64,000 nucleotides of DNA from Clostridia bacterium (lineage in GTDB: Bacteria > Bacillota > Clostridia > Christensenellales > DTU072): NCBI GenBank assembly GCA_041670385.1, contig JBAXZI010000001.1, positions 2,092 to 66,091 of the forward strand, in the 5' to 3' direction. The notes beneath the pieces were generated by a model, which ran no database searches, was not told the origin of the DNA, and saw only the letters and a list, made by a program, of their open reading frames with translations. A program made the position numbers and the translations under genes. Shown here one piece after another: positions 11,308 through 64,000 of this stretch (position 1 is the first letter of the stretch; each line of letters starts with the position of its first letter).

Positions 11308-11329
11308 CAATAGGAGACATAAAAGAATT

Positions 11330-40810: not shown

Positions 40811-40849
40811 AAAACAAAAAAGCAAAGAAATTATTCTTTGCTTTTTTTT
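40811..40849. terminator. bidirectional terminator (TrxR-like gene / tRNA cluster)
   Basis: AGCAAAGAA (40821-40829), loop ATTA, TTCTTTGCT (40834-40842), flanked by an A-run on the left and a T-run on the right. Confidence 0.7.
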
Positions 40850-40924
40850 GGTGGGAACAATAGGGCTCGAACCTATGACATCTTGCTTGTAAGGCAAGCG
40901 CTCTCCCAACTGAGCTATGCTCCC
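40849..40924 (-). tRNA. tRNA-Val (UAC)
   Basis: Hand-folded 76-nt cloverleaf GGGAGCA..TGTTCCCACCA with anticodon loop CTTACAA. CCA is encoded. Confidence 0.9.
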
Positions 40925-40933
40925 GAACTTTTT

Positions 40934-41008
40934 TGGTGACCCCACCGAGGTTCGAACTCGGGTTACCGCCGTGAAAGGGCGATGTCTTAACCGCTTGACC
41001 ATGGGGCC
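40934..41008 (-). tRNA. tRNA-Glu (UUC)
   Basis: 75-nt cloverleaf GGCCCCA..TGGGGTCACCA with anticodon loop CTTTCAC. Confidence 0.9.
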
Positions 41009-41021
41009 TTGTATTTTTACT

Positions 41022-41098
41022 TGGTAGCGGCGGTTAGATTCGAACTAACGACCTGCCGGGTATGAACCGGCCGCTCTAACCAACTAAGCCACGCCGCC
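41022..41098 (-). tRNA. tRNA-Met (CAU), elongator type
   Basis: 77-nt cloverleaf GGCGGCG..CGCCGCTACCA with anticodon loop TTCATAC. It resembles the Bacillus elongator Met tRNA. Ile2 (lysidine) identity is not formally excluded. Confidence 0.8.
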
Positions 41099-41131
41099 AC
41101 ATTGTATAATAGTCACACAGCTTAAAAAAAG

Positions 41132-41209
<78 letters not shown>

Positions 41210-41276: not shown

Positions 41277-42191
41277 CTAAACTTTGTTTTTTACAGAATT
41301 TATTATTGCATTTGCAACCACTTCGCTTGCCCCAACTTCAAGCAACATAAAATTTAAAACTTTCTTTTTTCCTGTCGCCATTACGAACATTGTATCACCG
41401 TCATAATCAGTATGGACTGGGCTAATAGTCCTTGCAAGTCCATTATGCGCTATACTTGCTAATTTATTTGCCTCTACTTTTGTTAGCTTAGCATCGGTAA
41501 TTAAACAACCTATAGTCGTATTTGTGCCCATAACTAACCTTAAATATTCTCCATCTAAAATACATTTTTTTGTATTTAACCAATTACCTTTATTGTCTTT
41601 TGCTCCCGCAATTATTTTATTTGTATCGGGGTCTATAATATCGCCTAAAGCATTTACTACCATAACAGCAGTTAGGGTAATACCCTGAACTTTAATTGTT
41701 GCTATACCCAAACCTGATTTACTAGAATTTTTAATGCCCCGAACCTTTCCACAAGTTGCACCAGTACCCGCACCTATATTTCCTGACACTGTATTTTCAT
41801 TATTTGCGTTTTTGCACGCTTCCATTCCCATTTGTTTGTCTGGGTAATGATAGTTAGTATCGTTCAAATCATAAATTACAGCACCCGAAACAATAGGAAC
41901 AATTTTATTTTGGATTTTGAACCCTATTCCGTTTTCTTTAAGATATTCCATTACTCCCGCTATAGCACCTAAACCATATGCACTTCCTCCGCAAAGAGCA
42001 ATTGCATTTATTTTTTGCATAGCTTTTTCATTGTGCAAAAGGTCAGTCTCGTGAGTGCCTGGTCCGCCACCACGGACATCGACACCGCCTATACAGCCTT
42101 CTTCACTAATAATTACACTTATTCCCGTGTATTCATCTTGAAAATGACCTATCTTAATCCCTTTTGGTATTATCACTGTTTCCATTATCAC
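41277..42191 (-). CDS. P1/S58-family (DmpA-like) aminopeptidase
   Basis: GVDVRGGGPGTHETDLL and GTNTTIGCLITDAKL (self-processing nucleophile region) match the DmpA/BapA Ntn-hydrolase pattern. The start is GTG 42191 or ATG 42185. Confidence 0.8.
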   Translation of the reverse strand: MIMETVIIPKGIKIGHFQDEYTGISVIISEEGCIGGVDVRGGGPGTHETDLLHNEKAMQKINAIALCGGSAYGLGAIAGVMEYLKENGIGFKIQNKIVPIVSGAVIYDLNDTNYHYPDKQMGMEACKNANNENTVSGNIGAGTGATCGKVRGIKNSSKSGLGIATIKVQGITLTAVMVVNALGDIIDPDTNKIIAGAKDNKGNWLNTKKCILDGEYLRLVMGTNTTIGCLITDAKLTKVEANKLASIAHNGLARTISPVHTDYDGDTMFVMATGKKKVLNFMLLEVGASEVVANAIINSVKNKV

Positions 42192-43584
42192 TATTATCCC
42201 TTTTTATTTTTTTCTTTCTTGTCGCAATTATTATTATGCAAACTATAATTCCTATTACTATTATACTACCAATCACAATTGCTACAATGAAAATAAATAA
42301 ATTTGTGTTAAATTTATTATTAATATTTTCGTTATATATAGGATTTTCACTTTCACAAAGTTCGAAAGATATATTGTTTTCTGGCACGCCATCTACTACG
42401 CTAGTAAAAGTATTATCCCCGTTATTTTTGAATTCTAGACTAGAATTAATTACATAAGGATTGTTCTCATTTGTTATTATGTTTATTGTCATTGTGCCAA
42501 ATTCTGCCCAATTTTTTGCTGGTGATGATATATATTTATATTGATATACGGTAGGTATATAATGTGCATCATATCCACCTTCATAATCATAACTAACACT
42601 TAGCATATTGCTGCCTTCATTTAATAAATTTACTTCATAGACCATCACAAATATGTAATTTTTATTATTTATAGTGAGGACTAATTCACTTAAATCTATA
42701 CAGCCTACTTCTTGCACTTCTCTATGGTCTAAATAAACATTTCTGTATTCCTCTGCAATAAAATTATTGATATTTTCTTCAAAGTCAAAATCAAGATTCA
42801 TTATATCTTGCAAAGTTGCATCTTCTTCAGTTAACCAAACATTATCTATTTTATTATCATCCAAATCATATATATTAACATTTTTTATACTTTCACCTAC
42901 TACAAACATCATAAAATCATCAGTTGCACTCAAAATGATATGCCCTTTTTCTTCGGATTCTTTTTGACTTGTATCCTTATAGGAATAATGATAACAATTT
43001 TCATAATAAAGCACCGTTTTTCGGAAATCTATATCAAACTCAATTTTGAAATTTTCATTTATATCTCTATTTAAGCTACAAATTTCGCCTGCCATTTCAT
43101 CTAAAGTATTTTCTCTTTGCATTTGATTTAAGCCATCTAGTAATACTTCAAAAGTTATACCGTTAATCCCAGATAAATCAAAATCCTCTACAAATGTTTG
43201 ATAATCTAAATTTATATCGTTACTTTTGATTGTGGGTCTATTTTCTTTATATGAATCCAAATTAGTAACCATAGGAAAACCCATATTTACAGTTTTATCA
43301 TCACCACTATTTCTAAAATCGTAAATTGCTGACACTTTACCTTTGTTATAATTACTTTCATTATAAATTGAAAAATCAAAGTTAAGAACTTCACTCGCTA
43401 CTGTTATATCTTCATCTGAAAGTGGTATCATTTCACTTGATTCTTGATTTGCAGGAAGATATAGCAATGCACTATTTGCAAAAGCTGAACTATTATTTTT
43501 AGTTAAAATTATAAAACTTGAAAACAATAAAATTGCCACAATGCTAAAAATCAATAATTTTCTTGTAAATTTCTTTATATTCAT
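42154..43584 (-). CDS. hypothetical single-pass membrane protein with a large extracytoplasmic domain
   Basis: N-terminal signal/anchor (LLIFSIVAILLFSSFIIL), a ~400-aa Asn/Asp/Tyr-rich domain, a C-terminal TM (LFIFIVAIVIGSIIVIGIIVCIIII) and a basic tail. It overlaps the S58 gene by 32-38 nt. Confidence 0.6.
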   Translation of the reverse strand: MNIKKFTRKLLIFSIVAILLFSSFIILTKNNSSAFANSALLYLPANQESSEMIPLSDEDITVASEVLNFDFSIYNESNYNKGKVSAIYDFRNSGDDKTVNMGFPMVTNLDSYKENRPTIKSNDINLDYQTFVEDFDLSGINGITFEVLLDGLNQMQRENTLDEMAGEICSLNRDINENFKIEFDIDFRKTVLYYENCYHYSYKDTSQKESEEKGHIILSATDDFMMFVVGESIKNVNIYDLDDNKIDNVWLTEEDATLQDIMNLDFDFEENINNFIAEEYRNVYLDHREVQEVGCIDLSELVLTINNKNYIFVMVYEVNLLNEGSNMLSVSYDYEGGYDAHYIPTVYQYKYISSPAKNWAEFGTMTINIITNENNPYVINSSLEFKNNGDNTFTSVVDGVPENNISFELCESENPIYNENINNKFNTNLFIFIVAIVIGSIIVIGIIVCIIIIATRKKKIKRDNSDNGNSDNTKRD

Positions 43585-47724: not shown

Positions 47725-48906
47725 TTATTTTAGTTTTAAGGTTATTACTGGTACTACACCGCCTTGTTTTTTGTTGGCTGGAATGAATGTATCACTAACA
47801 CCAAATTGATGAATTCTGCTCACAGAACTAGCCGAATTTGTGTGAGGTGAACGCAAATACCACCAACCATTATTAATGAAATTAGCATAAATTAATTTAT
47901 CTTTATTTAAGTATACAAAAGCACCCGCACTTATTGCGTATTCGGTAACTTTCTTTCTTCTTGCTAAATCAAATTCATATTCATCATTCAAAAATCCAAA
48001 GCTTGGTTTTAACACATTGTTATAACTTAACAAGCCTATTTTGTCTGATGTATTATTTTGTTCCATTGCATAAACATTTTGATCTTCGCTTATTGCTGTT
48101 TGTTTATTTTCAAAAGTGGTTGGCATAATAATCATTTTTTCCATATCCTTAAATGCTTTATTATATAAATCATTATTTAACCATTTTCTCATTTCACTAT
48201 ATTCCCAATTGTTTGCAAATATTTTGTTGCCACCAATTTTTTTAGTTCTTTTAGTGTTGTTATAAGCGTGGTTATCTATGATAGATTCAGCTAAAAGCAA
48301 TGCTTTATTGTTTTCTTCGGATAAAATACGCCAAATAATTGCTTCAACTTTGAAATAATATGTGGTTTTTTTCTTTATTTTTCTACCATCAGCAAATTTA
48401 TTTTTGCGACTAGCTGGTGTTGCTATAAATGCCATATATTCGCAATCATCAGAGCCTAAATAATAGCCATTTGAATTAGCAGATAAACTTACTATTTCTA
48501 CATCTTTATCTTTCAACGCATTTGGATAATGTCCAAATGTAATGTATTTACCATCTTTACATTCGTCTCCATATTCGTTTATTCTAACAAATAATCTATC
48601 ATCCACTTTCTTTTCTTCTTTTACTGCTTCTACCGTTACTTTTTCTTTCGCAATTTCAGCTTCTTCTTTTACTGCTTCAATAGTTGCTTCTTCTTTTGCA
48701 ATTTTGCCTTTCTCTTTTGCAATTTTAGCTTCTACTTTTTCTTCGATTTCAGCTGTTTCTATATCGCCATTTTCTTCTACTATGGTTTCTACATTAGCAA
48801 CTTCGTCTTTGCTTTTTTCTGTTTCTTCTGTTTGAATTCCAGTTACTTTTTCTATTTCTTTTTCATCAATAACTTTCTTTTCATTTACATCTTTTTTCGT
48901 TTCCAT
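47725..48906 (-). CDS. DUF6273-type protein with an acidic repeat N-terminus and no signal peptide
   Basis: The C-terminal 270 aa show the DUF6273 pattern (IIWRIL.., NNWEYSEMRKWLN.., DKIGLLS.., GWWYLRSP.., GGVVPVITL). The N-terminal 120 aa are Glu/Lys-rich repeats. AGGAG lies 7 nt before the ATG, 40 nt after the giant-gene stop. Confidence 0.65.
   Translation of the reverse strand: METKKDVNEKKVIDEKEIEKVTGIQTEETEKSKDEVANVETIVEENGDIETAEIEEKVEAKIAKEKGKIAKEEATIEAVKEEAEIAKEKVTVEAVKEEKKVDDRLFVRINEYGDECKDGKYITFGHYPNALKDKDVEIVSLSANSNGYYLGSDDCEYMAFIATPASRKNKFADGRKIKKKTTYYFKVEAIIWRILSEENNKALLLAESIIDNHAYNNTKRTKKIGGNKIFANNWEYSEMRKWLNNDLYNKAFKDMEKMIIMPTTFENKQTAISEDQNVYAMEQNNTSDKIGLLSYNNVLKPSFGFLNDEYEFDLARRKKVTEYAISAGAFVYLNKDKLIYANFINNGWWYLRSPHTNSASSVSRIHQFGVSDTFIPANKKQGGVVPVITLKLK
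48613..48735 (-). repeat. about 2.5 copies of a 48-nt (16-aa) tandem repeat in the DUF6273 gene
   Basis: TTCTTCTTTTACTGCTTC recurs at 48613 and 48661 (plus strand) with related sequence following. It encodes ..IAKE(K/E)..(T/I)(V/I)EAVKEE.. units. Confidence 0.6.
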
Positions 48907-48946: not shown

Positions 48947-51900
48947 TTATATATATATTATTTCTTCAAAATCTGTTGCATTATTCTTAAATGTATTTTG
49001 GATAAATGCATTATCCTTATAGCTTGCTTTTCCTTTAATACCGACAATATTCTTTTCAAAGTTATTTTCCATAAGAATAATATCTTTTTCACCATCTATT
49101 TCTACGGCTACTTCTTTATTGCTTATAAATTCGCACCCTCTTATATATGTATTTTCTGAGGTATATACGCTTATACCGTATTTATTAGAATTATATGCAC
49201 AATAAGTGATTTCGGCACTACCGCCCATTAATTCTATCGCTTTGATATAATTTTTGAATATAGTACGGGTTACCATTAATTCCCCAGTATATGTGCCGCT
49301 AGCGAGTATCGCTTTATTACCTATATTTAGTCCATCAAAATAACAATCAACTATTCCTATCAATCCTGCTTTTGCCCCAATAACTATATTATTCGAATTT
49401 TCTAATCCTTCCATTTTAAGGATTTTCATAACTACTTCGCCTTTAGTTATTTCTACGCCATTAATTATACTTATTATTTCTTTATTCTCATTATAACAAC
49501 CAATTAAAGTTATGCTGGCATTTTTATTTATATATAATTTTGAATATTTACCATAAGTACCATCTGCATTTTTAATCGCGTTTAGGTATATAGTAACTTT
49601 TTCGTTAACTTCTACATTATTTATAGCCGTTTGCAATTCCGAATCATTATTTACTATTATAGCATCTTCTTCCGCATAAATCGTATAATTATTGTGATCT
49701 ATTACAAAAACATTATAATTAGTAAACAATTCTATTGTACTAGCAAACTCGTAATTGCCTTCCTCATTAATATATTGATACAAATTTCCATCTTCTATAG
49801 CACTTTTTAAAATAAATCTATAATATTCCTTTCCATCAACTCCCGCAATTTTGTCATCACTATATCTCTTTGTATAACTTACATCACTATTTCCGCTTGC
49901 AATAAAACCATCAATATATATAGGATATGCGCCTAATACAAAATAATCTTTTACTTCACTGCTTGTTTTTGGCGTATAGAAATAATTTTTATTGTCCGTT
50001 GTCTGCAAACCATCAAAATTTAGAAAACTATCATAATCTTTGATTTCGCTTAGATATTCGCCTTGTGCCTTTATTTCATCAATATTTATGTATAAATTTT
50101 TAGCTACTATCCTAATAGGTATATTTTCCAATAAACCATCTGGATAATTTTGTCCACCATCAATTTCTATAGTCATAACATAGTTGCCTACATTTTTGAT
50201 TTTAGTAGCAGTGCAATTAACCATATTCTTAACATATTTATATGTATAGGTAAGCGTAACGCCTTGTGGCAAATTGCCATTTTCATCGTTAAGTCCGCTT
50301 ACATATGGACTTTGATAATCCCCATTATAAGTTAATTCATCATCTTGAATATTATAAATAACTACCGGTTGATTAATAACTATTTTTGCACTTACATCAG
50401 TAGTTCTTATATCAAATTCATAATTTCCATTGTTATCTGCCGCTTTAATGCTATATACCACAATATAATCGCCTGCATTTAATGGCAATTCTGTCAAAAT
50501 TTCATCATTTAGATTCTTATATGTTATATTTGGTACTACTTCACTTATATATAAATTATATTCTAAAGCATCAAATACTTCCGCATTAAGTTCTGTATCA
50601 TTTATAATATTTAGAGTTTTCTTTATATAAGCTTTTTTGTTATCCATATATACTCTAGTTGCCGAACTTACTCTATCGTATAAATCATTATATGCACGAC
50701 TCTTTGCTAATAAAATATCGTCATTATTATGTATTGGAGATAGGTATTGGGTATACAATATTTCTTTTTCTTGCGCCGTTTGTGGCCAAAATTCTACGTG
50801 AACCATTGGAAGTCCACTCGCTACACTAATCGCTCTATATTCTCCGTTATAAGTGTATGTTATGATATTGTTTACATTCGCGCCTTCAAATACTATATCG
50901 CTAATAAGCGTACCCGAACCCATACCACCTTGTTTTTCTTCACCAAGTATTTTGAATGCGTTTACTTTTAGATTCATTATAAATTGTCCTTCACAATTAT
51001 AATCACTAATAGTTATTCTCATAGTATATTCGCCTTTATTGTGAGGTCTGAATGTTGTTGTATAAGTATCAACACTTGCCGAAGCTAATTTGTATTCTAT
51101 TACATAATTGCTTTCTGGCAATACTTCAAGTTCTCCATTTTCACGCAAAACAACTACTTTATCGTATTCTAACTCTAAATTAAAGTTATTACCATCATAA
51201 ACCTTTTCTAAATTTCTATTTTCGCCTTCTTCTACTACCAAATTTGAAATATCAAGTTTATTTATGTAAACTCTTATTTCTTTATACAACCATTGTGCAG
51301 TTGATGAATAATAATATCCTTTAATGGTATAGTAAGAATAGCTACCTGTAGCTTTATTTATATTTACATCTTTAAGGTCCCACAAAAATTCAAATGTTCT
51401 TCCATCATCAAGTTTGCCTCTAGGCAACAAACAAGATGACATTGGTTCTCCAAGTTGCCAAATTAGAGCATCTTCTTCATCTAACATATTTACATATTTC
51501 CAAGTATATTTGCTTACACCCGCAGTTAGGTTTTCATTGATTTTTACTTTGTCTATACTACTATAATTATAATAAACCAATGGCAATTCTACTTCAAATA
51601 GCATAGCCTTAGACCCTTCTTCATCTCCTGCTAAATAAGACGAACTATCATCAATAAAGTATCTACAAGTATAAACTACTGTTTGTGCTACTACATCGTA
51701 TTTTTTAGAGATTATTTGGAAATCAACTTCATCTCCGTTATTTGCAATATGTACAAACTTGTTATCAAAAATTTGTGGCATATCCGCACTACTAGAAATA
51801 ACTCGACCATTTGAATCTATTGGCATACTAATTTTATCGTATTTAACAAATTTATTTTCCATATCATCTAATTTTGCATACAAATTAGGTGAAATAACTT

Positions 51901-54900
51901 CTATAGTAAATTCTATATTGTATTCCAAATCACTACCTATGCAAGCATAAACATTGTTATAAATATTTCCTTTTGTCAATACAATATCTCTTATTGTTTC
52001 ATTCTTAAATGTTAATGGAACTTTACGCCAATCCGTAGTTTCTGCTGTTACTGCAAAGTTATAATAAATGAATGAATAGAATTTTTCAAGTTGTTCTTCT
52101 TTTGTTATGTTTGCAACATCGTTAGATATCAAATATATCGTGCCACCATCAACAAATCCGTTGGTAACACCACCCATTCCATCGCTTACTTGTGGTCTTT
52201 CCAATTTTACATCGTCTACCATTATTTTTAGCCAAATAGTCTCGCAAATGTAATTAAAGCCCACAACTATATATCTGTTGTTATCTTCAATAACTGTTCC
52301 TGCGACAATAGCAGCTAAATGGTCTTCACCATTTATTGAATTATAAGTCCATTCCACACCTTCAGGTATATTAATTTCTTCTCCGCCATTTACTTCAATA
52401 GAAAGATTATCAAATAATTCTACATAATATGGATTAACGCTAAATTGGTCCAAAGCCACCAACCATCTTTGCGAATTGTCAACACCACTAATATTGTCAC
52501 CTAAAAATTCGCCTAATAGTTTTTTCTCGCCATTATCACTTATTACATAAAGCTTTTCTACTGCTTTGTCCTTAACTTCAAAATCTATATTCCAAATTTC
52601 ATTTGTTGGTGTACCTACAAATGTATTTTCGGAAATTTTTGAGTTGTCCACTTTGCTAAATATAGCGATTGTTGTAACATTACTTTCATAATTAAATGAT
52701 ACTCTATTATAAGTATTATTTTCATTGGCTACGCAATAACTTAATATTCTTATTGCGGTTGCATCATTACCTTTTAGTGAATATTCTATATCCCCTAAAT
52801 CCCAAACTACATCATAGTAGTACATACAACTGCTATAGCCTTTTCTAAATTCATCACTTGCATAGGACTCATAATTGCCGACAAAAGAATCTGGTAAATT
52901 ATATTTTTTACTTGACACATCTACCATACTTTCTTGAGTTGGATTAATACAAATCTTATTCGTGCCTAATAAAGAATTGTGCAAATCATAATAATTGATA
53001 TAAAGTCCACTTTCATCTTGATTTCCGACTAAATTATTATTTTCAGCATAATTGCCCCAAGCAACCCAATATTTTTGTAATGTACGGTCTAAATAATATA
53101 CTGTCAAACCAATATTAAAGCATTCGCCTTTATCATTAATTGCGGTTACTGCATAACTTCCAGTATCTCCATTTAGTGCATTTCCACCAAATTCATCAGT
53201 TAAAATGTTAAATATTTCATCATAACTAATATTAACGTAACCCGCATCAACTAATCTTGATATTCCATTCTTATCTTCATAAGCACCATAAGCCTTAACG
53301 TGTGAAGGCAAATCAGGATTAAGTGGGTCAATCGTAATTTTATTAATAAATTTACTATTTACTGTTGGTGTACCACCACTTGTTATACTAGCAACATCAT
53401 CTATCGTCGTAATATCATAAAAATCTAAATAACGCAATTCTATTTGTGGATAAATATAACGATATCCGTCCTTAACAAATACTGTATTTGCTTGATTTCT
53501 CTTGCTATAATTGGTTAGTTCAACTTTATTTATTGTTTGAGTAACAGCCGAACCTTCTTCTTGTAATGACTGTACATCAAATATCAAATAATGCTTTTTC
53601 TTCAAAGAATTATTAGCTTCATTTTCACTAACGTGATCACTTGCATAGAAAGTATAATATATATTACTATTAGCCAACATTCTATCAAAAACTAATTGGT
53701 AGCTTGAATCTGAAGTATCTACAATTCCACTTAAATAATTATCAGTAAATTCTTGATTTATTTGTGTATTATAGATAGTTTTTATAGTTGCGAGCATATC
53801 GGCAGTAGCTATATTTCCTTCATAACTTTTTACAAATTCTTTTTTACTAGTTAGTAATAACTCATCATATATTTTTTGTAAAAAGTCAACATATTTTTGC
53901 TTGTTTACATTATAATATGCTAACTGTAATTCTGTCATAGATTCAGTATTTTGAATAGTAAAACTTATTTCACTATAATTTTTCTGTATTTCTAATTCTA
54001 AATATTTACTCGCTATATGTAGATTTGTTTCTTCTAATAATTCTATAAACATACTATCATAAGCTTGTTTCGTTTTATCGGTAAATGTTTCCACCTTACC
54101 TAATAACATATCATCTAATTCTAATAAGTTTTTATCTAGTTTTTCTGTTGCCATATTCTGCGCATCATAAATTAAATTATTATAAAGTACATATGTTCTT
54201 AATTTACACATTTCTGTTTCATAATAATCAAGTTGTGCCATATTTTTTTGTGGTATACCTAATTGTGCTTCTAAATACAATGCATCTAAAAATCCTTTTT
54301 TAGTTTCATTGCTACTATTATACAAATTACTATATTTGATTGAATATCCATAATAAATAGCAATAAGACCATCTACTTTTTCACTTGCTTGTAGATAATT
54401 ATTTTTATTTTTTATTAGATATTCCATTATTTCCATCATTTTAGAAACATCAGTAAATGCAACGCTCAATTGTGATATATAACTATCATTAATTAAAATT
54501 TGATAATCAGGGTTATTCGCTATTTCATTAGCCCAATAATTCGACAATGCTACACTATCTTCAGCAATAAATCCATATTTATCTAGATTTTCAAAGCTTA
54601 AATTCAAATTAAGATTGTCAAAAACAGTAACATATCCTTCTCTTATTCTTATTAAGTCTTCTGCATCATTAATTATTGTCATTTCCTTACTTAATAATTG
54701 GTCTTTAATATATATGTAAGCATTATAATTTCTTTTCTTACTTGTTTCCATCAAATTCTGATAACTATCATCTAATATTTCTTCAAAAGTATCGTCTTCA
54801 GTTTGTTTTAACTGGTTATATTGGTATATATGCGAATCAGTCAACAAATCGCCGTGCTCTAAATTATATACTTTTTGACTATAACTATTGGTAAGTTCAT

Positions 54901-57900
54901 TGTATCTATCTTCTTTATATTCTTCATAAGCATAACTATCTGCCATTGTTACTAGGTAATCAGGGACAACTGTAGACCAATTTTTTATCATTAGTTTAAA
55001 CTTGTCATAATATCTATTATAGATGGTCATATATGTATCAATTGAATGTAAATTACTATGGTCTCCCGAATTATCAGGATTTTTTAAGTCTTCTTCTAAA
55101 GCAATGGCAATATCATTTTGTGCTTTACTAAGTTTCTTATCATAATAAATAGAACTTAAGTTATTTATAAAGTCTTCTCCTAAATCACATCTTTGTATAA
55201 GATGGTCATAAACTCCTCTAAGTCCTACAAAATTACCAGCTACGATACATTCACCATAAGAGGCACTTGCCCCTACTATTTTTGCTTTTTCTGCGTCGCT
55301 TGCCACATTATTGTAATAAAATTCTACAGCTTGCATACCTATTTGTTCGTTTTCTTCTTCGGATAATGATAAATAATTAGTAATGTTTCCGTTATCATCA
55401 AAAACAAAACCATCATTTAATACGCTATTATAAATTTCTTCCGAATATCTATACAAATTATTATTTAGATAATTGTTTATTTCACTTTGTAATTGTACTT
55501 GTGCAGCATTAGCCTCAAATGTTTTTTCTTCAAATATCAAATCAAATGCCATTGCTTTTTCGTTATAATTATCTCTTACTTCATTAACTCTTTCGACATC
55601 TGATGTATCCATATTACTGATATAATTTGCATAACCGTCAGATTTTATTTCTAATAACGCATTGTCATAAATTTCTACTAGTAACTCTTTAGCATTAGAA
55701 ATATCACTCTTATGACATAGATACATATTATAAAAAACTTTAGCTTTCTTCAATGTTTCAAATTCTTCATCTGTAAGTGAACTTGCATAATCAGCTTTTT
55801 CTATATCTATATTATTATAATAATCATTTACCATTTGAACGGTTTCTACGCCATTAAATTCATCTATTCTATCAAGTACTTCATAATAAGCACTATCTAA
55901 TCCTACTTTCATATTAAATATATCAGTTACTACTGTTCTAATTTTTACACTAGCACCTGAATCATACATAAAGTAATAAATAGCATCAAGGTATTTATTT
56001 GCTGCTGTAGAACTGTTCTTTTTATCCACAAGAGTAGCCACTTGGTCAGGATAAACATTTTGTAATGTTTCCAATGTAAGTCCATAAAGAGTACCTGCTA
56101 CACCATTTATACCAACTAATCCACCATAAACATCTTGGAAAACTTGACTTTGTTCTTTAGGATACAAACCAGTATCTTCCATAAATATCTTTATTAACAA
56201 TGCATCAATTTGTTTGTCAGCAATAGCTATTTTTTCATCAAAATAAGAGGACGCTATATCTTGCAAATAAATTTTGAACTCCTCAGTAGCTAAAGTATAA
56301 TCATTACTATTTGATAGTAAAATAGAATCCATTTTATTAACTAACTCAGTTTTACCTTGTATTACATAAGCCCCTCTAATTTGTGGCCATTCTACCATAT
56401 ATTCAAATGTTTCATCGGCAGTAAAATGAATAATTGCCTGCTCTCTTAAATAATTTCTATAAGCTGTTATTACTGCATCTCTTTTGTTTACTTCACTAAT
56501 ATTTCCATCTGTATCATAATCATAAATCCATTGGCTTGCCTCGTAAGTAAATGGTATTCTATCACCACTGCTATCAGTAGGTACAAAACTATTCATAATT
56601 TGAGAAAATACAAAATTATAATATGTTTGCAAAGTATTGCTTATCTCGCTTATTTCAAAATCTTGCTTTATTTTTGCCAAACCTTCATTTATTAATGAAT
56701 CATACATTTCCTCTTTGTTTTCAATAAATTTTGCATCAACATTATCAATTAATGAATCAGAATTATATATATTAAAGTAGAAAGTATCCAATTCTTCTCT
56801 AAATTCATCACTGCTAACTAGCATATCAAATGTAACTTTCGGTGCACTTATTGTTGCTTTTGTTTCTTCTCCATAACTACCCAAACAAGCTAAATTTTCA
56901 TTTATAAATATTTTAAGTGCACTAGAACGAGCTACTGCTCCTTCTTTAGTACCTAATAATTCAGTCATTCTACTAGCTTCATTTACATTTACTCTATCAA
57001 ATACTTTATACCAAATTGCACTATTAATGAAATTTGATAAATTATTTTGTATTTCTACATAATAGGAATTGTTAACATTTATTTCTTCCAAAGTAAATAC
57101 ATTATTATCGCTACAATAATCATACATTTCTTTCTTAATTATTTGATATGCAGAAATATTATCAATATCGACATTTTCAGAAAATCCGTCATAATTACCA
57201 ATAAACTTGTTTCTTTCTATTAGCCAATTTTCATAAATTTCTTTATCTCCTTGTGAAAGTTCGTCATTTGCATAATCAGTTTTCATTTGATTATATAAAT
57301 ACGACTTAAACTCGGTATTATTAACATTTTGCTCATTATCAAATTCAGGATGTTCGTTTATTACTGTTCGCAACAAGGTGTTTTCAAAATAATTTGCATT
57401 TACTCTGTTTACCACATAATATTTGCTAAGTAAGCTATCAAAACTCTGTGCATTTACAAGCTTGCTTACCTTCGCTTGAATACTTGTCAAACTATTTTTT
57501 GTGTTGGTAGAATAATTGCTTTTTGGAATATAGTTATCACCTGATTTCATAAAGAATTTATCATAAGTCATTGATTTTATTAAATCTGAATAACTTAAAT
57601 CAACTTCTTTCTTGAACATAGAATATAAATACCCTATATTTGTATTTTGATAATATATATAACCAGTTATTTCTTTATCGGAAAAACCTTCATAGCTGAT
57701 TATAGAATCACTATTATATCTATCCCACGAAATTGTCTGTACTATTTCATCAGAATTTATATTAGAGTAAAAATCACTACTTGAATAACCTAAATTTTTA
57801 AGTGCTTGTGCATAATATTTGGAACTATCAACAAACATATTACTATCTAGGCTGCAGCCTATATCAGACAATAAGCCCGCTACAGGGTCAGAATATTTGT

Positions 57901-60900
57901 AGCTAGTAACATAATCAATTTGAAGTGATCTATTTAGTACTACTAAATTTACATCAAACGGTTGGATACCGACATCCACGCCTAAATCGTTTTTTCCCAT
58001 AGAAATATAACCGACAAGTTTGTATATTCCGCCAACACAGCTTTCTTTTGTGTTTTTAAAGTATGCATATTTACACCCTTCATTTAAGGTACTATCTTTT
58101 GTGTAAAAATAACTATGTTCATTTATATCTATCAACTCATTATTGCTATTATAAATATCCCATCTAACTACAGGCAAATTAACAATATCATCTTCATTGT
58201 GGAAATTAATCTCTACATTGGTAGGCAATAGTTGCGTACGACTATTATAAGGGTCTACATAATATAAACTTGTTAGTAGATGATCAACTAAATTACCACT
58301 ATTTAGTACTACATTATTCAATTGTACTTTATCAATAGCTCGGTTAAGAATCCTTACAAACAAATCGAATACTTGCCCAGAATAAAGTGTTAGCCTAATA
58401 TTAACGCCATCACTTGATAAATCTGTATAAGTTTCGATTAAGCTATGTCCTGCATAACTATATGGAATATGGGTAATATTGCCTAATAATACCGTAGTTT
58501 TGTCTTGATTCAATAAAGCATAGCTTTCGATATCACTTTCGCTTGCTATTACATATCTTTCATTATTTGCAAAATTAATAGCCATATTAACTTTTGGCAA
58601 TACAAAGTCACCCTCATATCCCATTTCGTCATTATATGGGTCAATTACGATAATATTTTCTATATCATTTCCATTTTTAATTGTCGGTAATTTGTTTCCA
58701 TCGACCGAATAATCTATGCCAATAAATGAAAGTGCTTCCATTTCTACATAAACTTTAACTTCTTGATATACGTGTATTTTATATTCATCATAATAGCTGT
58801 TGATTTTAGCCGTAGCAAGCAAACGATTTGCATCTCTACTAATTCCACTATTAAAATCTTCTTTTCTTATTGCGTTTTCAATAGGTTCCCAGCTTACTAC
58901 AAAGCTATTAATATCTGTCGCTTCAAACTTTCCTGTTTTGATTTCGGCTAATATATTGGTAGGCAATTTTGTATAATCAAAGCCCGTTTTATAAATATTA
59001 TTATTCCCATCTGTATATTGTGCAGTTGCAGAATAGAACATATACGCATTATCTACAGTAATAAATCCTTCGTTTATATTATAAACAAATTCATTAGCCT
59101 CTGCATTATAATTTATTTCTTGTATATTTTTTCTTGGTATGTTTACATTTAAATAATAATATTTATCATCTTCTATGCCACCTTTTAATGGTTGAAGAGG
59201 CAATTTCATATAAAACGCATAATTAACTGGATTATTAGACAATACATTTATAAGGTCTACATTAATATTGGTTGTTTTGTCCAAATTGTTAAACATTGGT
59301 TTATAATTATCGCCGATAAACCAACCTTCACTATCTATGTAATATCTTATCTTTCCTGATTTTTTATAGCTTATTTCTACATACTTAGGTAGTATATAGC
59401 CATTAATTCCACAACTTTCTCCATCTTCATCAAATATTTCCGCAGTTAAGTTCCTATTTATTGATATTCTTTCATCGACTTCAGCAGTGATTATTATTGG
59501 GATATTAAATACTGCACTACCTACATTTGATAATTTTAACATATTAAGAATTGTCAAACTTGTATTTTCTACACCTAAATTGTCATTTATTCCAAATATG
59601 TTCTTGTTGATATTTTCAAAAGTTAGATATATACCATTATCAATTTGAGGTATATATTCATTATGTACACCACTTGTATAAGTTATAGCAATACCATTAT
59701 TAAATATATATTGCAAATAGCTCATTGGGTCTGCATAAGATTCCATTATATTTCCACTAACACTGTCTACTTTCGGAGTGGTTAGAGCAAAAGCTCTATC
59801 TATATTAATATAGAAAGCATTATCGCTAAGTATTTGAGCTATACTTATTCTGCCATCGCTACCCTTTTGTGGCAATTCTATTGCATTTGAATTTTCACAA
59901 GTATAGGCAAGTGGAATAGTAATATATGATAAATCTAAAGAGCTAAAATTAAACTCTATACTTAAATTTTGCTCATTAATTGTACCCTTACAAATAATAC
60001 CCTCTAATATTAATGTAATACCTGGTTCGGGATTTTTTAATAAATTTATAAGTCTTACTAAACTATGTTCATATCCGTCTGTACCTTCAATAGATTTGTT
60101 CCACTCTACATATAGATTATATCTATCTATTATCATATTAGTACGGGCTTCATCAAAACCAACACCTATAGTATAGCCTTTAGTTGTGTCATCTAAAAAT
60201 ACTTTTAATCTATTATATAGTGTCAAACTGTCAGAATCCAAACAATTTATTTCAAAATAACCATTTACTAAATTACCTGTTTCAAACACATTTATCTTGT
60301 CTTCTACTATTGTTCTTGCAGGTACATTTACATTAATTATTAATGCTTGTTTTAGCACAGAATTTGTAGCCTGTAATATATATCTAATTACATAAGTGCC
60401 ACCATTCCTGTCAAAAATATAATTACCGTTTTTGTCATACATTGTAGTGTCATATGGCAAACTTGTACTTACATTTATAGGCAAATATGATTCTTCATTA
60501 CCCTTGCTTACTTCCCAGCTAATATTTTCTCTACTAACCAATTCACCACTTTCTAATACCGCCACAAAACTTCCCGGCAAGCTATAAGCCTTATACGGGT
60601 CAATGGTTATTTCTGTACTTCCCGCATTCATTCCTTCGTAAGTAATTGATTGTAATTGGCTATCTAAATTGTGTATTCTTACTCTTATGGTTTCATAGAA
60701 ATTGCCATCTCCAATTTTACCAAATACATAAAAATATGTCTCTTCGGTGTTTGGATGGGCTAAGTTATATTTGCCATTTTCATTTATCTTAATTATATTG
60801 GTTTCAATATCATTATTGTTTGTAGTTTGCCATACTATAGGATACTCAATAAATATCTTAGTAGCACTACTGTTATAATGTTTTACTTCCAAAAATATAC

Positions 60901-63900
60901 TACTAGGTAAATAACTTTGCGTTTCATAAGGATTTACATCAAATGCCTCATATTTATCGCCATTAATACTAAACTTTACTGGAGATAAAACATAACTTTG
61001 AGGAGTTGAATAAGTAACTGTACCATCGCCATTATCAGTTACATTGCCGACAGCTACAGCGGTAGAATTGTTATCCTCACTATTTAAAAGTATCTTTCTT
61101 TCTGGTACTTCAACAGTTAAATTAACTCTATTCCCACCTAAAGTACCAAAATTGATTATTGCCCAAGTATTATTGCCTTGACTTTTACCAAACAATGCAC
61201 GTGAACCTTCTTCTAAATTGACATTATTCATATAATTGTCTATAAGATTCCAATTTAATGTGGTAGCTATATATTCATTATAGAAAGTATTATCACTAAT
61301 TTCTATAGGTTTTGTTTGTTTTATTTTTCTTGAAGTGCCATCAGTAAAAGTAACCTTAACTACTATATCTGTAGTACATTGAGTAGGTATTACATAACTG
61401 CTTTTTATCAAACTATCAATAACATATCTACCGTTTTCTTCTGTACCTATATTAATATGGTCAATGTTTTTTGCTTTTACAATAACTTTAATCGCAATCT
61501 TTATACCATCACCAATAAATTTACCGCTAATATCATATTTTATGTCGCCATAATAAGCATAAGCATATTGTTGTGCTCCGCCAAAACTAATTTTACTCTC
61601 ATCAAATTGCCAATTTAAGTTAAGCTTACTCAAAATAAAATAATTATATCCTTCTACATTGTAAGTTAAAGGCGTATTATTTTCATCTAAAGCGTACAAG
61701 TTATCAAAATATATCTTCATTTCTTGCTCGCTAATTGCTTCGGTTATTGGGTTATAATTATTTATATTGGCTTTTTTCATAGCATAGGTATATGGGTCTA
61801 TTACTATCATACCCACGCAAGGTGTGCCTACAGTATCATAAATCTCGTCAATTGTTCCATCGCCATCATCATCAGCTTTATAAGTTATCAAAGTACGGTT
61901 TTGTACAGCAAAATATACCTGAAATTCTTTTTCTAAAATGCTGTTATTCCCAATTCTTAATGTATAAGTAATAACTTTTTCATTCGCAAATACTTCTCTA
62001 TTCAATCCCGCATAACTTATTGTATCATCTGTTAGCCCTTCAATAACACAAGGTAAATAACCTGTTTTCCCATTCATAAACAATACTTCTATTTCTGTCG
62101 GTACTTTTCTACTAAATGCCGGGTCAACAATAATTGTATCATTTATTAGGTTTTTCAACTCATAAGAACCTATTTCTGAGGTTATGCTAAGCAAATAATC
62201 TGAATTTACCCCGAAAATTGAGCATTGTGGATTGTATTGTTTTTTATCATCAGCAACTAAAATGCTAGATGCTATATAATTTGGTGTAAGTTCAATTTCA
62301 TTTGTACCAATATTAACGGTAATTGAATCTTTCCAATTACTGTTGCTTTCATAAAGGCTTTCTATTTGAACTGCATCTTTAAATTCGTCATCTAATTCTG
62401 GTATATTATAATTACCTACACTTATATCATTTAATAAAACTGCTGAGAATAAAAATCTTACTTTTGTAGTAGCAGATAAGCCACTTATCCCTATTAAATC
62501 ATAAAGTGGATCAGTATAAACGCCATTCTTTGGTGTGGACTGTAAAACAAAATTGTAAAACCCATCGGTATTAATTACTTGTACATTATTAGAATCTTCT
62601 TTTATGATTTTTTTCAACATATCAACAAGACCTTGCTCATTGTTAAAATCATTGCTTTGCCCTACTATTTTATTAAGTGCAATACTTACTATACTTCTAT
62701 CTATTTGATATTTATATCCACCTGCAATAGTCGTTTTGTTTTTTCCTAACGGCATCATATATTCAACAATCATTTTTGCATTATTAACAGGATTTGTATA
62801 AATATTTAATATTGGCGATTGAACATTGCTAATTATAGAAGAAAATTCCATTCTTAGTTTATATTCGCTATTCATATCTCCATTGGACACAGAAAGGAAG
62901 CTTTCGCTAATTTCTCCTTCTATATGAATACGGTCGTTCCTCCCTAATAAATAAGGCGTGTTTTTCCCGCTTTCGTCCCCAATAAATGTTCCAAAGAAAG
63001 CACTAAAATCTGTTGTTACTTTTCCACTCCCTACTGCTATATCAGCAATGAATTCTGTCTTTGCATCTAATGGCATTTTGAACTCTTTGTAAATATAACT
63101 GTCTTGTCTAATTTCATCAGGGAATTTTATATCTTTAAAAGGCATTCTTAAGACTTCCATATCAGCCTCTAATTCTTCATTATGATAATATTTTAGACCA
63201 ATTTCGTTAGTTTCTGTATTATAACAAATTCTTAATGTGCTATTCTCAAAAAAGTCTTCGCCAAGCATAGAGTCGATTAATTTAACATTTATATTTAATG
63301 TCCTCGCTAAAATATCAGCTACACCTTCATCATTTTGACGCAACTTCGTAATAAGGTCTTCTGTAATATCATAATAAACGACATCACCTTCATACCCAAA
63401 ATTGTTCATAACAATATCATACAAATTTTCATTATCGGAACTAGGCAAATCCCCAACATTATTTAAGATTTCCATAATCATTCTTGTACCACTATTATAG
63501 ATAGTGTTAATAAGATTGGTTATTGAAATTCCTTCAAAATAAACTTTAGGTAAGTTAAAAGCACTAATATCGATTGCTCCTTGCCCACTTCCTCCACTTT
63601 TAATATAATTATCCTCCATCCCGCTAATATCAAGATAAGCTATCTGGTCACGATAGTATGCACTTAATAAATTGTTATCAAGAGCATCTGACATATTAAT
63701 CATTATTTCATTATTTTCATTATTATTCGTATCGAATAAAGTAGAAATATTTATATCAAAAGGTTCCTCACTTAATTTCGGAATTACTATTGTTCCTTTA
63801 TAAAGGTTTTTGCCTAAATTTATTGTGGTGTATTCTACTTCTTTTATGTTTTCGCCTTGCAATACATCAATGGCTTCGTCTATCTTATAAGAGATATCAG

Positions 63901-64000
63901 CATTAATTATGTACTTTTCATTTCCTTTTAATCTACCATTTAATTCTAGTATAACATTGTCAACGACATTACTTTCTCTTTGTAAATTAAGTTCTTCTAG
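48947..64000 (-). CDS. giant mosaic protein, more than 5,017 aa visible (N-terminus off-window)
   Basis: Continuous minus-strand ORF from the window edge to TAA 48947-48949. I hand-translated 63863-64000 and found no stop, so the TTG at 63862 in the track is not the real start. It has a C-terminal parallel beta-helix (PbH1-like) repeat region, MBG-like YDG/YNG modules, many 'LP..V...W' Ig-like modules and a central helical block. Confidence 0.9.
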   Translation of the reverse strand, partial: LEELNLQRESNVVDNVILELNGRLKGNEKYIINADISYKIDEAIDVLQGENIKEVEYTTINLGKNLYKGTIVIPKLSEEPFDINISTLFDTNNNENNEIMINMSDALDNNLLSAYYRDQIAYLDISGMEDNYIKSGGSGQGAIDISAFNLPKVYFEGISITNLINTIYNSGTRMIMEILNNVGDLPSSDNENLYDIVMNNFGYEGDVVYYDITEDLITKLRQNDEGVADILARTLNINVKLIDSMLGEDFFENSTLRICYNTETNEIGLKYYHNEELEADMEVLRMPFKDIKFPDEIRQDSYIYKEFKMPLDAKTEFIADIAVGSGKVTTDFSAFFGTFIGDESGKNTPYLLGRNDRIHIEGEISESFLSVSNGDMNSEYKLRMEFSSIISNVQSPILNIYTNPVNNAKMIVEYMMPLGKNKTTIAGGYKYQIDRSIVSIALNKIVGQSNDFNNEQGLVDMLKKIIKEDSNNVQVINTDGFYNFVLQSTPKNGVYTDPLYDLIGISGLSATTKVRFLFSAVLLNDISVGNYNIPELDDEFKDAVQIESLYESNSNWKDSITVNIGTNEIELTPNYIASSILVADDKKQYNPQCSIFGVNSDYLLSITSEIGSYELKNLINDTIIVDPAFSRKVPTEIEVLFMNGKTGYLPCVIEGLTDDTISYAGLNREVFANEKVITYTLRIGNNSILEKEFQVYFAVQNRTLITYKADDDGDGTIDEIYDTVGTPCVGMIVIDPYTYAMKKANINNYNPITEAISEQEMKIYFDNLYALDENNTPLTYNVEGYNYFILSKLNLNWQFDESKISFGGAQQYAYAYYGDIKYDISGKFIGDGIKIAIKVIVKAKNIDHINIGTEENGRYVIDSLIKSSYVIPTQCTTDIVVKVTFTDGTSRKIKQTKPIEISDNTFYNEYIATTLNWNLIDNYMNNVNLEEGSRALFGKSQGNNTWAIINFGTLGGNRVNLTVEVPERKILLNSEDNNSTAVAVGNVTDNGDGTVTYSTPQSYVLSPVKFSINGDKYEAFDVNPYETQSYLPSSIFLEVKHYNSSATKIFIEYPIVWQTTNNNDIETNIIKINENGKYNLAHPNTEETYFYVFGKIGDGNFYETIRVRIHNLDSQLQSITYEGMNAGSTEITIDPYKAYSLPGSFVAVLESGELVSRENISWEVSKGNEESYLPINVSTSLPYDTTMYDKNGNYIFDRNGGTYVIRYILQATNSVLKQALIINVNVPARTIVEDKINVFETGNLVNGYFEINCLDSDSLTLYNRLKVFLDDTTKGYTIGVGFDEARTNMIIDRYNLYVEWNKSIEGTDGYEHSLVRLINLLKNPEPGITLILEGIICKGTINEQNLSIEFNFSSLDLSYITIPLAYTCENSNAIELPQKGSDGRISIAQILSDNAFYINIDRAFALTTPKVDSVSGNIMESYADPMSYLQYIFNNGIAITYTSGVHNEYIPQIDNGIYLTFENINKNIFGINDNLGVENTSLTILNMLKLSNVGSAVFNIPIIITAEVDERISINRNLTAEIFDEDGESCGINGYILPKYVEISYKKSGKIRYYIDSEGWFIGDNYKPMFNNLDKTTNINVDLINVLSNNPVNYAFYMKLPLQPLKGGIEDDKYYYLNVNIPRKNIQEINYNAEANEFVYNINEGFITVDNAYMFYSATAQYTDGNNNIYKTGFDYTKLPTNILAEIKTGKFEATDINSFVVSWEPIENAIRKEDFNSGISRDANRLLATAKINSYYDEYKIHVYQEVKVYVEMEALSFIGIDYSVDGNKLPTIKNGNDIENIIVIDPYNDEMGYEGDFVLPKVNMAINFANNERYVIASESDIESYALLNQDKTTVLLGNITHIPYSYAGHSLIETYTDLSSDGVNIRLTLYSGQVFDLFVRILNRAIDKVQLNNVVLNSGNLVDHLLTSLYYVDPYNSRTQLLPTNVEINFHNEDDIVNLPVVRWDIYNSNNELIDINEHSYFYTKDSTLNEGCKYAYFKNTKESCVGGIYKLVGYISMGKNDLGVDVGIQPFDVNLVVLNRSLQIDYVTSYKYSDPVAGLLSDIGCSLDSNMFVDSSKYYAQALKNLGYSSSDFYSNINSDEIVQTISWDRYNSDSIISYEGFSDKEITGYIYYQNTNIGYLYSMFKKEVDLSYSDLIKSMTYDKFFMKSGDNYIPKSNYSTNTKNSLTSIQAKVSKLVNAQSFDSLLSKYYVVNRVNANYFENTLLRTVINEHPEFDNEQNVNNTEFKSYLYNQMKTDYANDELSQGDKEIYENWLIERNKFIGNYDGFSENVDIDNISAYQIIKKEMYDYCSDNNVFTLEEINVNNSYYVEIQNNLSNFINSAIWYKVFDRVNVNEASRMTELLGTKEGAVARSSALKIFINENLACLGSYGEETKATISAPKVTFDMLVSSDEFREELDTFYFNIYNSDSLIDNVDAKFIENKEEMYDSLINEGLAKIKQDFEISEISNTLQTYYNFVFSQIMNSFVPTDSSGDRIPFTYEASQWIYDYDTDGNISEVNKRDAVITAYRNYLREQAIIHFTADETFEYMVEWPQIRGAYVIQGKTELVNKMDSILLSNSNDYTLATEEFKIYLQDIASSYFDEKIAIADKQIDALLIKIFMEDTGLYPKEQSQVFQDVYGGLVGINGVAGTLYGLTLETLQNVYPDQVATLVDKKNSSTAANKYLDAIYYFMYDSGASVKIRTVVTDIFNMKVGLDSAYYEVLDRIDEFNGVETVQMVNDYYNNIDIEKADYASSLTDEEFETLKKAKVFYNMYLCHKSDISNAKELLVEIYDNALLEIKSDGYANYISNMDTSDVERVNEVRDNYNEKAMAFDLIFEEKTFEANAAQVQLQSEINNYLNNNLYRYSEEIYNSVLNDGFVFDDNGNITNYLSLSEEENEQIGMQAVEFYYNNVASDAEKAKIVGASASYGECIVAGNFVGLRGVYDHLIQRCDLGEDFINNLSSIYYDKKLSKAQNDIAIALEEDLKNPDNSGDHSNLHSIDTYMTIYNRYYDKFKLMIKNWSTVVPDYLVTMADSYAYEEYKEDRYNELTNSYSQKVYNLEHGDLLTDSHIYQYNQLKQTEDDTFEEILDDSYQNLMETSKKRNYNAYIYIKDQLLSKEMTIINDAEDLIRIREGYVTVFDNLNLNLSFENLDKYGFIAEDSVALSNYWANEIANNPDYQILINDSYISQLSVAFTDVSKMMEIMEYLIKNKNNYLQASEKVDGLIAIYYGYSIKYSNLYNSSNETKKGFLDALYLEAQLGIPQKNMAQLDYYETEMCKLRTYVLYNNLIYDAQNMATEKLDKNLLELDDMLLGKVETFTDKTKQAYDSMFIELLEETNLHIASKYLELEIQKNYSEISFTIQNTESMTELQLAYYNVNKQKYVDFLQKIYDELLLTSKKEFVKSYEGNIATADMLATIKTIYNTQINQEFTDNYLSGIVDTSDSSYQLVFDRMLANSNIYYTFYASDHVSENEANNSLKKKHYLIFDVQSLQEEGSAVTQTINKVELTNYSKRNQANTVFVKDGYRYIYPQIELRYLDFYDITTIDDVASITSGGTPTVNSKFINKITIDPLNPDLPSHVKAYGAYEDKNGISRLVDAGYVNISYDEIFNILTDEFGGNALNGDTGSYAVTAINDKGECFNIGLTVYYLDRTLQKYWVAWGNYAENNNLVGNQDESGLYINYYDLHNSLLGTNKICINPTQESMVDVSSKKYNLPDSFVGNYESYASDEFRKGYSSCMYYYDVVWDLGDIEYSLKGNDATAIRILSYCVANENNTYNRVSFNYESNVTTIAIFSKVDNSKISENTFVGTPTNEIWNIDFEVKDKAVEKLYVISDNGEKKLLGEFLGDNISGVDNSQRWLVALDQFSVNPYYVELFDNLSIEVNGGEEINIPEGVEWTYNSINGEDHLAAIVAGTVIEDNNRYIVVGFNYICETIWLKIMVDDVKLERPQVSDGMGGVTNGFVDGGTIYLISNDVANITKEEQLEKFYSFIYYNFAVTAETTDWRKVPLTFKNETIRDIVLTKGNIYNNVYACIGSDLEYNIEFTIEVISPNLYAKLDDMENKFVKYDKISMPIDSNGRVISSSADMPQIFDNKFVHIANNGDEVDFQIISKKYDVVAQTVVYTCRYFIDDSSSYLAGDEEGSKAMLFEVELPLVYYNYSSIDKVKINENLTAGVSKYTWKYVNMLDEEDALIWQLGEPMSSCLLPRGKLDDGRTFEFLWDLKDVNINKATGSYSYYTIKGYYYSSTAQWLYKEIRVYINKLDISNLVVEEGENRNLEKVYDGNNFNLELEYDKVVVLRENGELEVLPESNYVIEYKLASASVDTYTTTFRPHNKGEYTMRITISDYNCEGQFIMNLKVNAFKILGEEKQGGMGSGTLISDIVFEGANVNNIITYTYNGEYRAISVASGLPMVHVEFWPQTAQEKEILYTQYLSPIHNNDDILLAKSRAYNDLYDRVSSATRVYMDNKKAYIKKTLNIINDTELNAEVFDALEYNLYISEVVPNITYKNLNDEILTELPLNAGDYIVVYSIKAADNNGNYEFDIRTTDVSAKIVINQPVVIYNIQDDELTYNGDYQSPYVSGLNDENGNLPQGVTLTYTYKYVKNMVNCTATKIKNVGNYVMTIEIDGGQNYPDGLLENIPIRIVAKNLYINIDEIKAQGEYLSEIKDYDSFLNFDGLQTTDNKNYFYTPKTSSEVKDYFVLGAYPIYIDGFIASGNSDVSYTKRYSDDKIAGVDGKEYYRFILKSAIEDGNLYQYINEEGNYEFASTIELFTNYNVFVIDHNNYTIYAEEDAIIVNNDSELQTAINNVEVNEKVTIYLNAIKNADGTYGKYSKLYINKNASITLIGCYNENKEIISIINGVEITKGEVVMKILKMEGLENSNNIVIGAKAGLIGIVDCYFDGLNIGNKAILASGTYTGELMVTRTIFKNYIKAIELMGGSAEITYCAYNSNKYGISVYTSENTYIRGCEFISNKEVAVEIDGEKDIILMENNFEKNIVGIKGKASYKDNAFIQNTFKNNATDFEEIIYI

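Follow-up and report, generated by a model that had tools for sequence, protein, structure and literature searches.

A giant putative lipoprotein gene cut by a contig window is paired with a second giant gene in an uncultured Clostridia lineage

We analyzed a 64,000-nucleotide stretch of DNA from a Clostridia bacterium (GenBank assembly GCA_041670385.1, contig JBAXZI010000001.1, forward-strand positions 2,092 to 66,091; hereafter the window), which breaks off inside a giant minus-strand gene that we call B. On balance, we favor the reading that the B protein is an N-terminally lipid-tethered surface fiber or adhesin with a glycan-binding tip and that it acts as a pair with a second giant protein, A. 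The gene lies in the window as follows:

48947..64000, minus strand: giant putative lipoprotein gene B, visible part (5,017 codons plus TAA); the full product has 5,269 aa, and the first 252 codons, with the signal peptide and Cys24, lie off-window.

The minus-strand frame 48947-64000 translates into 5,017 sense codons with no internal stop and closes with the TAA at 48947-48949, in agreement with the original prediction made from the DNA letters. The region of the giant gene is ~30% G+C, a composition at which, by our own arithmetic, stops would make up about 8% of random codons, so that an open run of this length cannot be a product of chance. A TTG at 63862 is listed as the start although the frame continues upstream past base 64000, because the list of open reading frames (ORFs) omits those running off the window. 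The earlier suspicion that this TTG is an artefact and that the true N-terminus lies off-window proved correct: a search of 5.8 billion proteins returned P0001 (MFA6865922.1, WCR54_00215), a 5,269-aa hypothetical protein of a Clostridia metagenome-assembled genome (MAG), which is 100% identical to the window frame over the 4,997 aa queried. Relative to P0001, the window frame is short of 252 N-terminal residues (756 nt beyond base 64000), and the database protein thus supplies the N-terminus that had been sought. The peptides quoted earlier as examples of modules had also been located correctly, such as YSLPGSFVAVLESGELVSRENISWEV at about 60509-60586.

The origin of the sequence from a MAG and its almost blank Pfam scan might suggest an assembly chimera or a decaying pseudogene, but the stop-free run of codons at 30% G+C argues against either. 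We identified 12 further homologues of P0001 at 25-60% identity, nearly all of which are collinear with it end to end, and invariant motif columns occur along the whole length. The complete orthologues (11, two further records being partial) span 5,215-5,850 aa; five orthologues were read on contigs that come from distinct samples and sequence archives, and a second contig, of 126 kb, carries a copy of identical length. Full-length collinear orthologues in independent assemblies exclude a chimera or pseudogene, an explanation that is effectively refuted, and bear out the continuity of the frame.

Residues 1-24 of P0001 form a lipoprotein-type signal peptide, MKKRFKIILLVIFVMLVALSLFAC, with the lipobox L-F-A-C24; from N25, the sequence continues with NSSNNDIIDTDD. 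P0001 was scored as a lipoprotein on its basic n-region, its hydrophobic h-region and a lipobox of the type [LVI][ASTVI][GAS]C within the first ~15-35 residues. In all 13 B orthologues, the N-terminus starts with an n-region carrying Lys/Arg, continues through a hydrophobic core of ~15 residues to the sequence [LM]-[FVI]-A-C at residues ~21-27, and leads into an acidic linker rich in Asn and Pro. A lipobox is also present in 66 of the 68 partner-family proteins, the remaining two being truncated, and in 71 of the 76 superfamily members of at least 2,000 aa, among which the exceptions look truncated.

The signal peptide is the sole transmembrane (TM)-like hydrophobic segment in the 5,269 residues of P0001, and this sequence lacks any LPXTG-type motif that precedes a TM segment. 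Pfam returned no SLH, LysM or choline-binding match to the window part of the protein. The original prediction had reported that the window holds no anchoring module, which we confirm, and had concluded that export and retention were unexplained, which is true of the window but not of the full protein, with its off-window lipobox signal conserved in every orthologue. Since this signal resides in the residues beyond the window, the puzzle of the missing anchor is an edge effect with an ordinary answer. In the Lgt/LspA pathway, Sec export is followed by diacylglyceryl transfer to the lipobox Cys and by signal peptidase II cleavage, leaving an N-terminal tether; judging from its sequence, B would be retained in this manner. 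Two other window proteins bear lipoboxes, a 2,727-aa BspA-type leucine-rich repeat (LRR) protein and a 797-aa Pfam-dark protein, indicating that lipid tethering is routine for large surface proteins here. More generally, when a giant ORF is truncated at an edge, the apparent lack of an anchor can reflect the cut and not the biology.

B is one half of a two-gene unit. In all eight contigs examined, giants A and B lie on one strand, and the end of A precedes B by 14-57 nt. On the five contigs carrying B orthologues, A is a Pfam-blank giant of 3,803-4,356 aa separated from B by 14-42 nt. Starting from the distant partners P0047, P0067 and P0022, the next gene, 17-57 nt downstream, again encodes a giant (4,275-5,538 aa) that starts with a lipobox and aligns to P0001 from residue 1 at 25-31% identity. 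Across loci, the A family measures ~3,600-4,400 aa. A search with one A partner retrieved 68 proteins, among them P0015 (WCR54_00220, MFA6865923.1, 3,979 aa), whose locus tag and accession are consecutive with those of P0001 in the source MAG and whose contig has the same length as that of P0001 (113,423 bp). Because a 393-aa ORF occupies the 3' side of B and the tags are consecutive, the 3,979-aa A must flank the 5' end of B, off-window. Its start must lie ~12.7 kb beyond the window edge, on the upstream side, so that the A-B unit covers ~28 kb, about 54% of it inside the window.

Sequence comparisons identify A and B as collinear remote paralogues. The two proteins give a collinear pairwise BLAST match (E 3e-5), and the N-terminal region is common to both up to residue ~600: the B block profiles covering 201-600 match 33 of 33 A proteins. 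Two further B blocks, which carry DPY...LP modules, each have about seven matching sites in P0015. From residue 2,201 onward, B block profiles (helical block, second beta region and beta-helix) found no match in A. The pair thus combines the four features that define a paired-giant superfamily, namely a lipobox, a shared N-terminal domain of ~600 aa, a length above 2,000 aa and a position of A directly upstream of B. In the N-terminal alignment of 7 sequences, divergence was too high for pattern scanning.

Domain libraries are nearly silent about this protein: the single match to its window part in Pfam and NCBIfam is PF13229 (Beta_helix), near the C-terminus. Five P0001 tile profiles searched against PDB sequences returned nothing meaningful (the best E-values were 0.0066, for 62 residues of an uncharacterized protein, 0.48 and 0.84). 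Self-BLAST of P0001 gave no off-diagonal match at E<1, and Tandem Repeats Finder detected no real tandem repeat in it. We divide the visible part into six regions, some of them containing immunoglobulin (Ig)-like modules:

62357..64000, minus strand: N-terminal region, visible C-terminal part (P0001 253-800), with the motifs IGDxSGKNTP, NLPKVYF and YYRDQ.
57767..62356, minus strand: first beta-rich region (P0001 801-2330), divergent putative beta-sandwich modules with a near-invariant I-D-P-Y...L-P-x-x-V...W; modules at P0001 ~861-959, 976-1060, 1266-1359, 1380-1475, 1786-1852, 2030-2128 and 2157-2260.
53597..57766, minus strand: central B-specific block (P0001 2331-3720), probably mostly alpha-helical, the most indel-rich and least conserved part.
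51257..53596, minus strand: second beta-rich region (P0001 3721-4500), with DP...LP modules at ~3800-3900 and 3931-4030.
49640..51256, minus strand: Ig-like (filamin/MBG-like) beta-sandwich modules plus a ~70-aa helical insert (P0001 4501-5039), assigned from model m53355359dd17, Foldseek and orthologue Pfam matches.
48950..49639, minus strand: right-handed parallel beta-helix (P0001 ~5040-5269), assigned from Pfam, AlphaFold and Foldseek.

This arrangement broadly agrees with the five-region layout proposed earlier (beta modules, a helical block, further beta modules and a beta-helix), whereas the Big_4 and MBG names given to some of the modules are weakly supported. The N-terminal region has no PDB or Pfam relative. 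In the beta-rich parts, the most conserved columns form the I-D-P-Y...L-P-x-x-V...W signature at about eight places in P0001. Module profiles weakly cross-match one another and sites in the partner P0015, with marginal E-values and small target sets, and a single-module hidden Markov model (HMM; residues 1378-1475) did not convincingly find the other modules. Foldseek searches with an AlphaFold model of P0001 801-1500 returned exclusively tandem Ig-like beta-sandwich arrays, a weak indication given the poor model. Among the arrays matched by this tile and by the C-terminal one are S-layer and adhesion proteins.

Big_4 (PF07532, gathering score 22.1 bits) does not match the window protein at E<0.1; in a relaxed scan of six orthologues, it appeared in single sequences only, at E 0.015 and 0.062. 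Only two distant members of the partner family, P0047 (30.4 bits) and P0079 (34 bits), exceed the threshold; their matching segments carry the same LP..V...W motif, and B module profiles touch the P0079 segment marginally. MBG (PF17883 / PF18887) likewise gave no match to the window protein in the Pfam scan. The relaxed scan of the six orthologues yielded Filamin in three, MBG in one (7.4e-5) and MBG_3 in two (1.2e-3), at positions that were not reported.

The central block contains 1-9% Pro+Gly per 100 aa, and a 3.6-residue hydrophobic periodicity is dominant at P0001 ~2330-3720; outside this block, beta-type periodicity dominates. Its profiles have no counterpart in the A family, and no PDB relative was found. 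The composition and periodicity are consistent with the all-alpha block put forward in the original prediction.

The C-terminal beta-helix, also predicted earlier, is well established. PF13229 maps to window positions 48977-49279 with E-values of 1.9e-6 to 4.6e-7 and 28-30 bits, above the gathering score of 25.9. An AlphaFold model of the last 829 aa (m53355359dd17; mean predicted local distance difference test (pLDDT) score 68.9, rising to 80-95 over the final ~170 residues) contains a right-handed beta-helix besides beta-sandwich modules and a short helical insert. Foldseek matched this model to the Ig arrays of Sap, SbsC, contactins and LdtMt2, and matched the beta-helix with probability 1.00 to RbmB, pectin lyase A/B, the PL6 alginate lyase and Lam55A, at 9-17% identity. 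An HMM score above gathering, together with the fold, identifies this domain as a right-handed beta-helix.

These best confident fold matches are polysaccharide lyases or, for Lam55A, a GH55 enzyme, and they raise the question of whether B is a surface-displayed polysaccharide-degrading enzyme, in which a catalytic lyase or glycosidase beta-helix on a long stalk would serve depolymerization rather than adhesion. Across 11 orthologues, E5175 is invariant, position 5111 (Lys in P0001) is kept basic and D5137 is near-invariant and kept acidic, which would be compatible with catalysis. The conserved positions of the beta-helix are, however, mainly Asn, Gly and aromatic stacking residues, whereas a multi-Asp/Arg/Lys constellation is typical of the catalytic sites of PL1, PL6 and GH28. 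No polysaccharide lyase (PL) or glycoside hydrolase (GH) family was detected in the Pfam and NCBIfam scans, only the generic Beta_helix repeat, and no family-specific HMM or catalytic or Ca2+-binding constellation supporting PL or GH membership was found by conservation, without residue-level superposition. The domain has no PDB sequence relative, its identity to the matched enzymes is low, and it is among the less conserved parts of P0001. We thus consider an enzymatic B unlikely.

The structural matches also bear on a second alternative, in which A and B would co-assemble into a lipid-tethered coat or S-layer-like lattice rather than into individual fibers. The top Foldseek matches of both modeled tiles include the S-layer proteins Sap, EA1, SbsB and SbsC. 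The strict A-B pairing with its common N-terminal domain and the housekeeping chromosomal context (see below) would suit such a layer, and a lipid would provide an alternative tether for a protein lacking an SLH domain. These matches nevertheless stem from the general geometry of Ig arrays: TM-scores are ~0.1 and root-mean-square deviations exceed 30 Å. Typical S-layer proteins have ~400-1,500 aa and are expressed at very high levels; 5,269 aa is far from this range, and we know of no precedent for an S-layer subunit of such a size. A coat is therefore improbable in our view; it ranks slightly above the enzyme among the rival explanations, and the assembly artefact ranks last.

Returning to the lipid-tethered fiber that we favor, we propose that Sec would export B through its N-terminal signal peptide, Lgt would diacylglycerylate Cys24 and signal peptidase II would cut before this residue. 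The N-terminal lipid would then hold B at the external surface of the cytoplasmic membrane, and such a tether would account for the lack of an LPXTG, SLH or C-terminal TM anchor. The membrane-proximal N-terminal domain, following the acidic linker, may be the site of A-B association. Distal to it would come the divergent Ig-like chain, the ~1,390-aa B-only helical spacer, more beta-sandwich modules and the beta-helix, in this order. The resulting extended fiber is predicted to reach through and beyond the wall and might expose the beta-helix at its tip, where it would bind glycans as an adhesive module.

Several points weigh against this reading. The N-terminal 252 residues of B were taken from the database protein P0001 and not from upstream DNA, and lipoboxes were called by regular expression and hydropathy, not by SignalP or LipoP. 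Position -2 of the B lipobox is Phe, Val or Ile, which is acceptable but rarer than Ala or Ser. The source organism may have a monoderm or a diderm envelope, either being possible. Structure models cover the last 829 aa and residues 801-1500 of P0001; the latter, built from a 6-sequence multiple sequence alignment, is made mostly of strands and has a pLDDT of 55.8. The central block is probably mostly alpha-helical, as indicated by periodicity and composition. The adhesive role is suggested purely by the architecture, and catalysis by the beta-helix is possible given its likeness to enzymes and the retention of E5175, K5111 and D5137.

We also entertain a bolder version of the proposal, which we regard as doubtful: A and B might together form a novel lipid-anchored heteromeric surface organelle, a very long non-repetitive fiber with a B-specific helical spacer and a beta-helix tip, by which this uncultured Clostridia lineage, whose genomes may be small, would attach to a partner cell or to host glycans, the shared N-terminal domain being a new fold for A-B assembly at the membrane.

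Giant surface proteins are usually recognized by repeats and canonical anchors such as LPXTG, type I secretion system (T1SS) or autotransporter modules. The B family has neither: it is non-repetitive, putatively tethered by an N-terminal lipid and almost wholly Pfam- and PDB-dark, and it belongs to a strict paralogous giant pair of ~28 kb, which could be the principal surface structure of these organisms. Searches of the literature yielded no account of a paired giant lipoprotein family, and we consider it an undescribed family of a general kind that is already known.

The family is rare. An exhaustive search of 1.84 billion representative proteins with an HMM of the N-terminal 800 aa gave only 102 matches. 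The long ones (~1,400-6,860 aa) all carry the domain near the N-terminus: its start is usually at residue 1-12 and always within the first few hundred. The shorter matches resemble contig-end fragments. Only 1 of 185,579 species-representative genomes, the MAG encoding P0007, contains a relative. The closest relatives of the window RecA (72-86% identity) are proteins of Clostridia, Clostridiales or Bacillota MAGs, some of them on long contigs that carry the pair, and this comparison gave no finer placement. Our sequence searches thus indicate that the family is restricted to relatives of one uncultured Clostridia lineage, and the N-terminal domain, found in only ~100 of the 1.84 billion proteins, would be a clean lineage marker. 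The genes around the giant pair are housekeeping genes (SerRS, a tRNA cluster, RecA, RNase Y, FtsK, Mfd and Pth). For P0020 of the partner family, the giant pair lies on a contig of 1,562,155 bp; if this contig is a near-complete chromosome, genomes in the lineage are small and the pair takes up ~1.7% of this one.

The gene following B encodes a small protein with a C-type-lectin-like domain:

47725..48906, minus strand: DUF6273 (C-type-lectin-like) protein, 393 aa, Pfam E 2.8e-18, with no signal peptide and an E/K-rich N-terminus.

Its ribosome-binding site lies 40 nt after the stop of the giant, no terminator intervenes and a hairpin follows the gene at 47697-47674; from this layout, it is probably co-transcribed with B. 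The gene is absent at the corresponding position in the P0002 and P0004 loci and, on this comparison of loci, is not a conserved part of the A-B unit. DUF6273 is a C-type-lectin-like domain and a frequent target of diversity-generating retroelements in phages (PMC10743442). We considered this neighbor as a marker of such a retroelement and rejected it, as the window contains no template-like repeat or reverse transcriptase.

The 2,727-aa BspA-type LRR protein (799-8982, plus strand) has 19 LRR_5 stretches, an N-terminal Listeria-Bacteroides repeat and the lipobox …LIALIFVGC, followed by IPNG. Tested for kinship with B or A, it proved unrelated. Locus L008 has a similar LRR_5 giant close to its A-B pair. 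In the window, the LRR gene is followed downstream by two adjoining genes for Rce1-like CAAX-type intramembrane proteases (290 and 362 aa; 10435-12373, plus strand). The 797-aa protein (18181-20574, plus strand) has no Pfam match and a lipoprotein signal, MKKKLVVLILFVALVSSLLLSSC followed by TF, and would be an uncharacterized surface lipoprotein. A 476-aa protein (42154-43584, minus strand) starts with a hydrophobic signal or anchor, MNIKKFTRKLLIFSIVAILLFSSFIILT…, and gives a sub-threshold TMEM154 match that is spurious; at both the P0002 and the P0004 locus, its gene is kept beside one for Peptidase_S58. The tRNA cluster at 40849-41209 reads Met-Met-Glu-Val 5' to 3' on the minus strand, with two tRNA-Met(CAT), and is ordinary housekeeping.

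The closest described analogue that we found in the literature appears to be the Giant1-5 cluster of Apilactobacillus kunkeei, whose proteins have Sec/signal peptidase I signals, long internal imperfect repeats, a C-terminal DUF5776 and an N-terminal beta-solenoid (PMC12863079). Like A and B, Giant1-5 are encoded by consecutive genes for extracellular proteins of 3,000-8,000 aa on a Bacillota chromosome and start with an N-terminal signal peptide. They further share with B an elongated predicted structure with a beta-solenoid domain, the lack of LPXTG and the presence of neighboring (co-evolving) giants. In contrast to them, B has a lipobox of the signal peptidase II type, no internal repeats, no DUF5776 match and a beta-helix at its C-terminus. 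We detected no sequence relationship between B and Giant1-5, and B lacks the features that define that family.

B resembles adhesins of the Big_4, MBG or filamin type in its chains of beta-sandwich modules and its LP-x-x-V...W signature. It differs from these Ig-like repeat adhesins in having no Ig-like Pfam match at E<0.1 and modules too divergent for self-BLAST to detect at E<1, and its anchor would be an N-terminal lipid instead of a sortase motif, T1SS or type V secretion system. The fold of its last ~230 residues matches RbmB, PL1 pectin lyase, PL6 and GH55 enzymes, but identity is 9-17%, no catalytic constellation is conserved, and in B a stalk of 5,000 aa carries this domain as its tip. 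The BspA-type LRR giants of gut Clostridia, of which the window carries one, are also large lipobox-tethered surface proteins; they consist largely of repeats that Pfam covers well, and B is unrelated to them in sequence.

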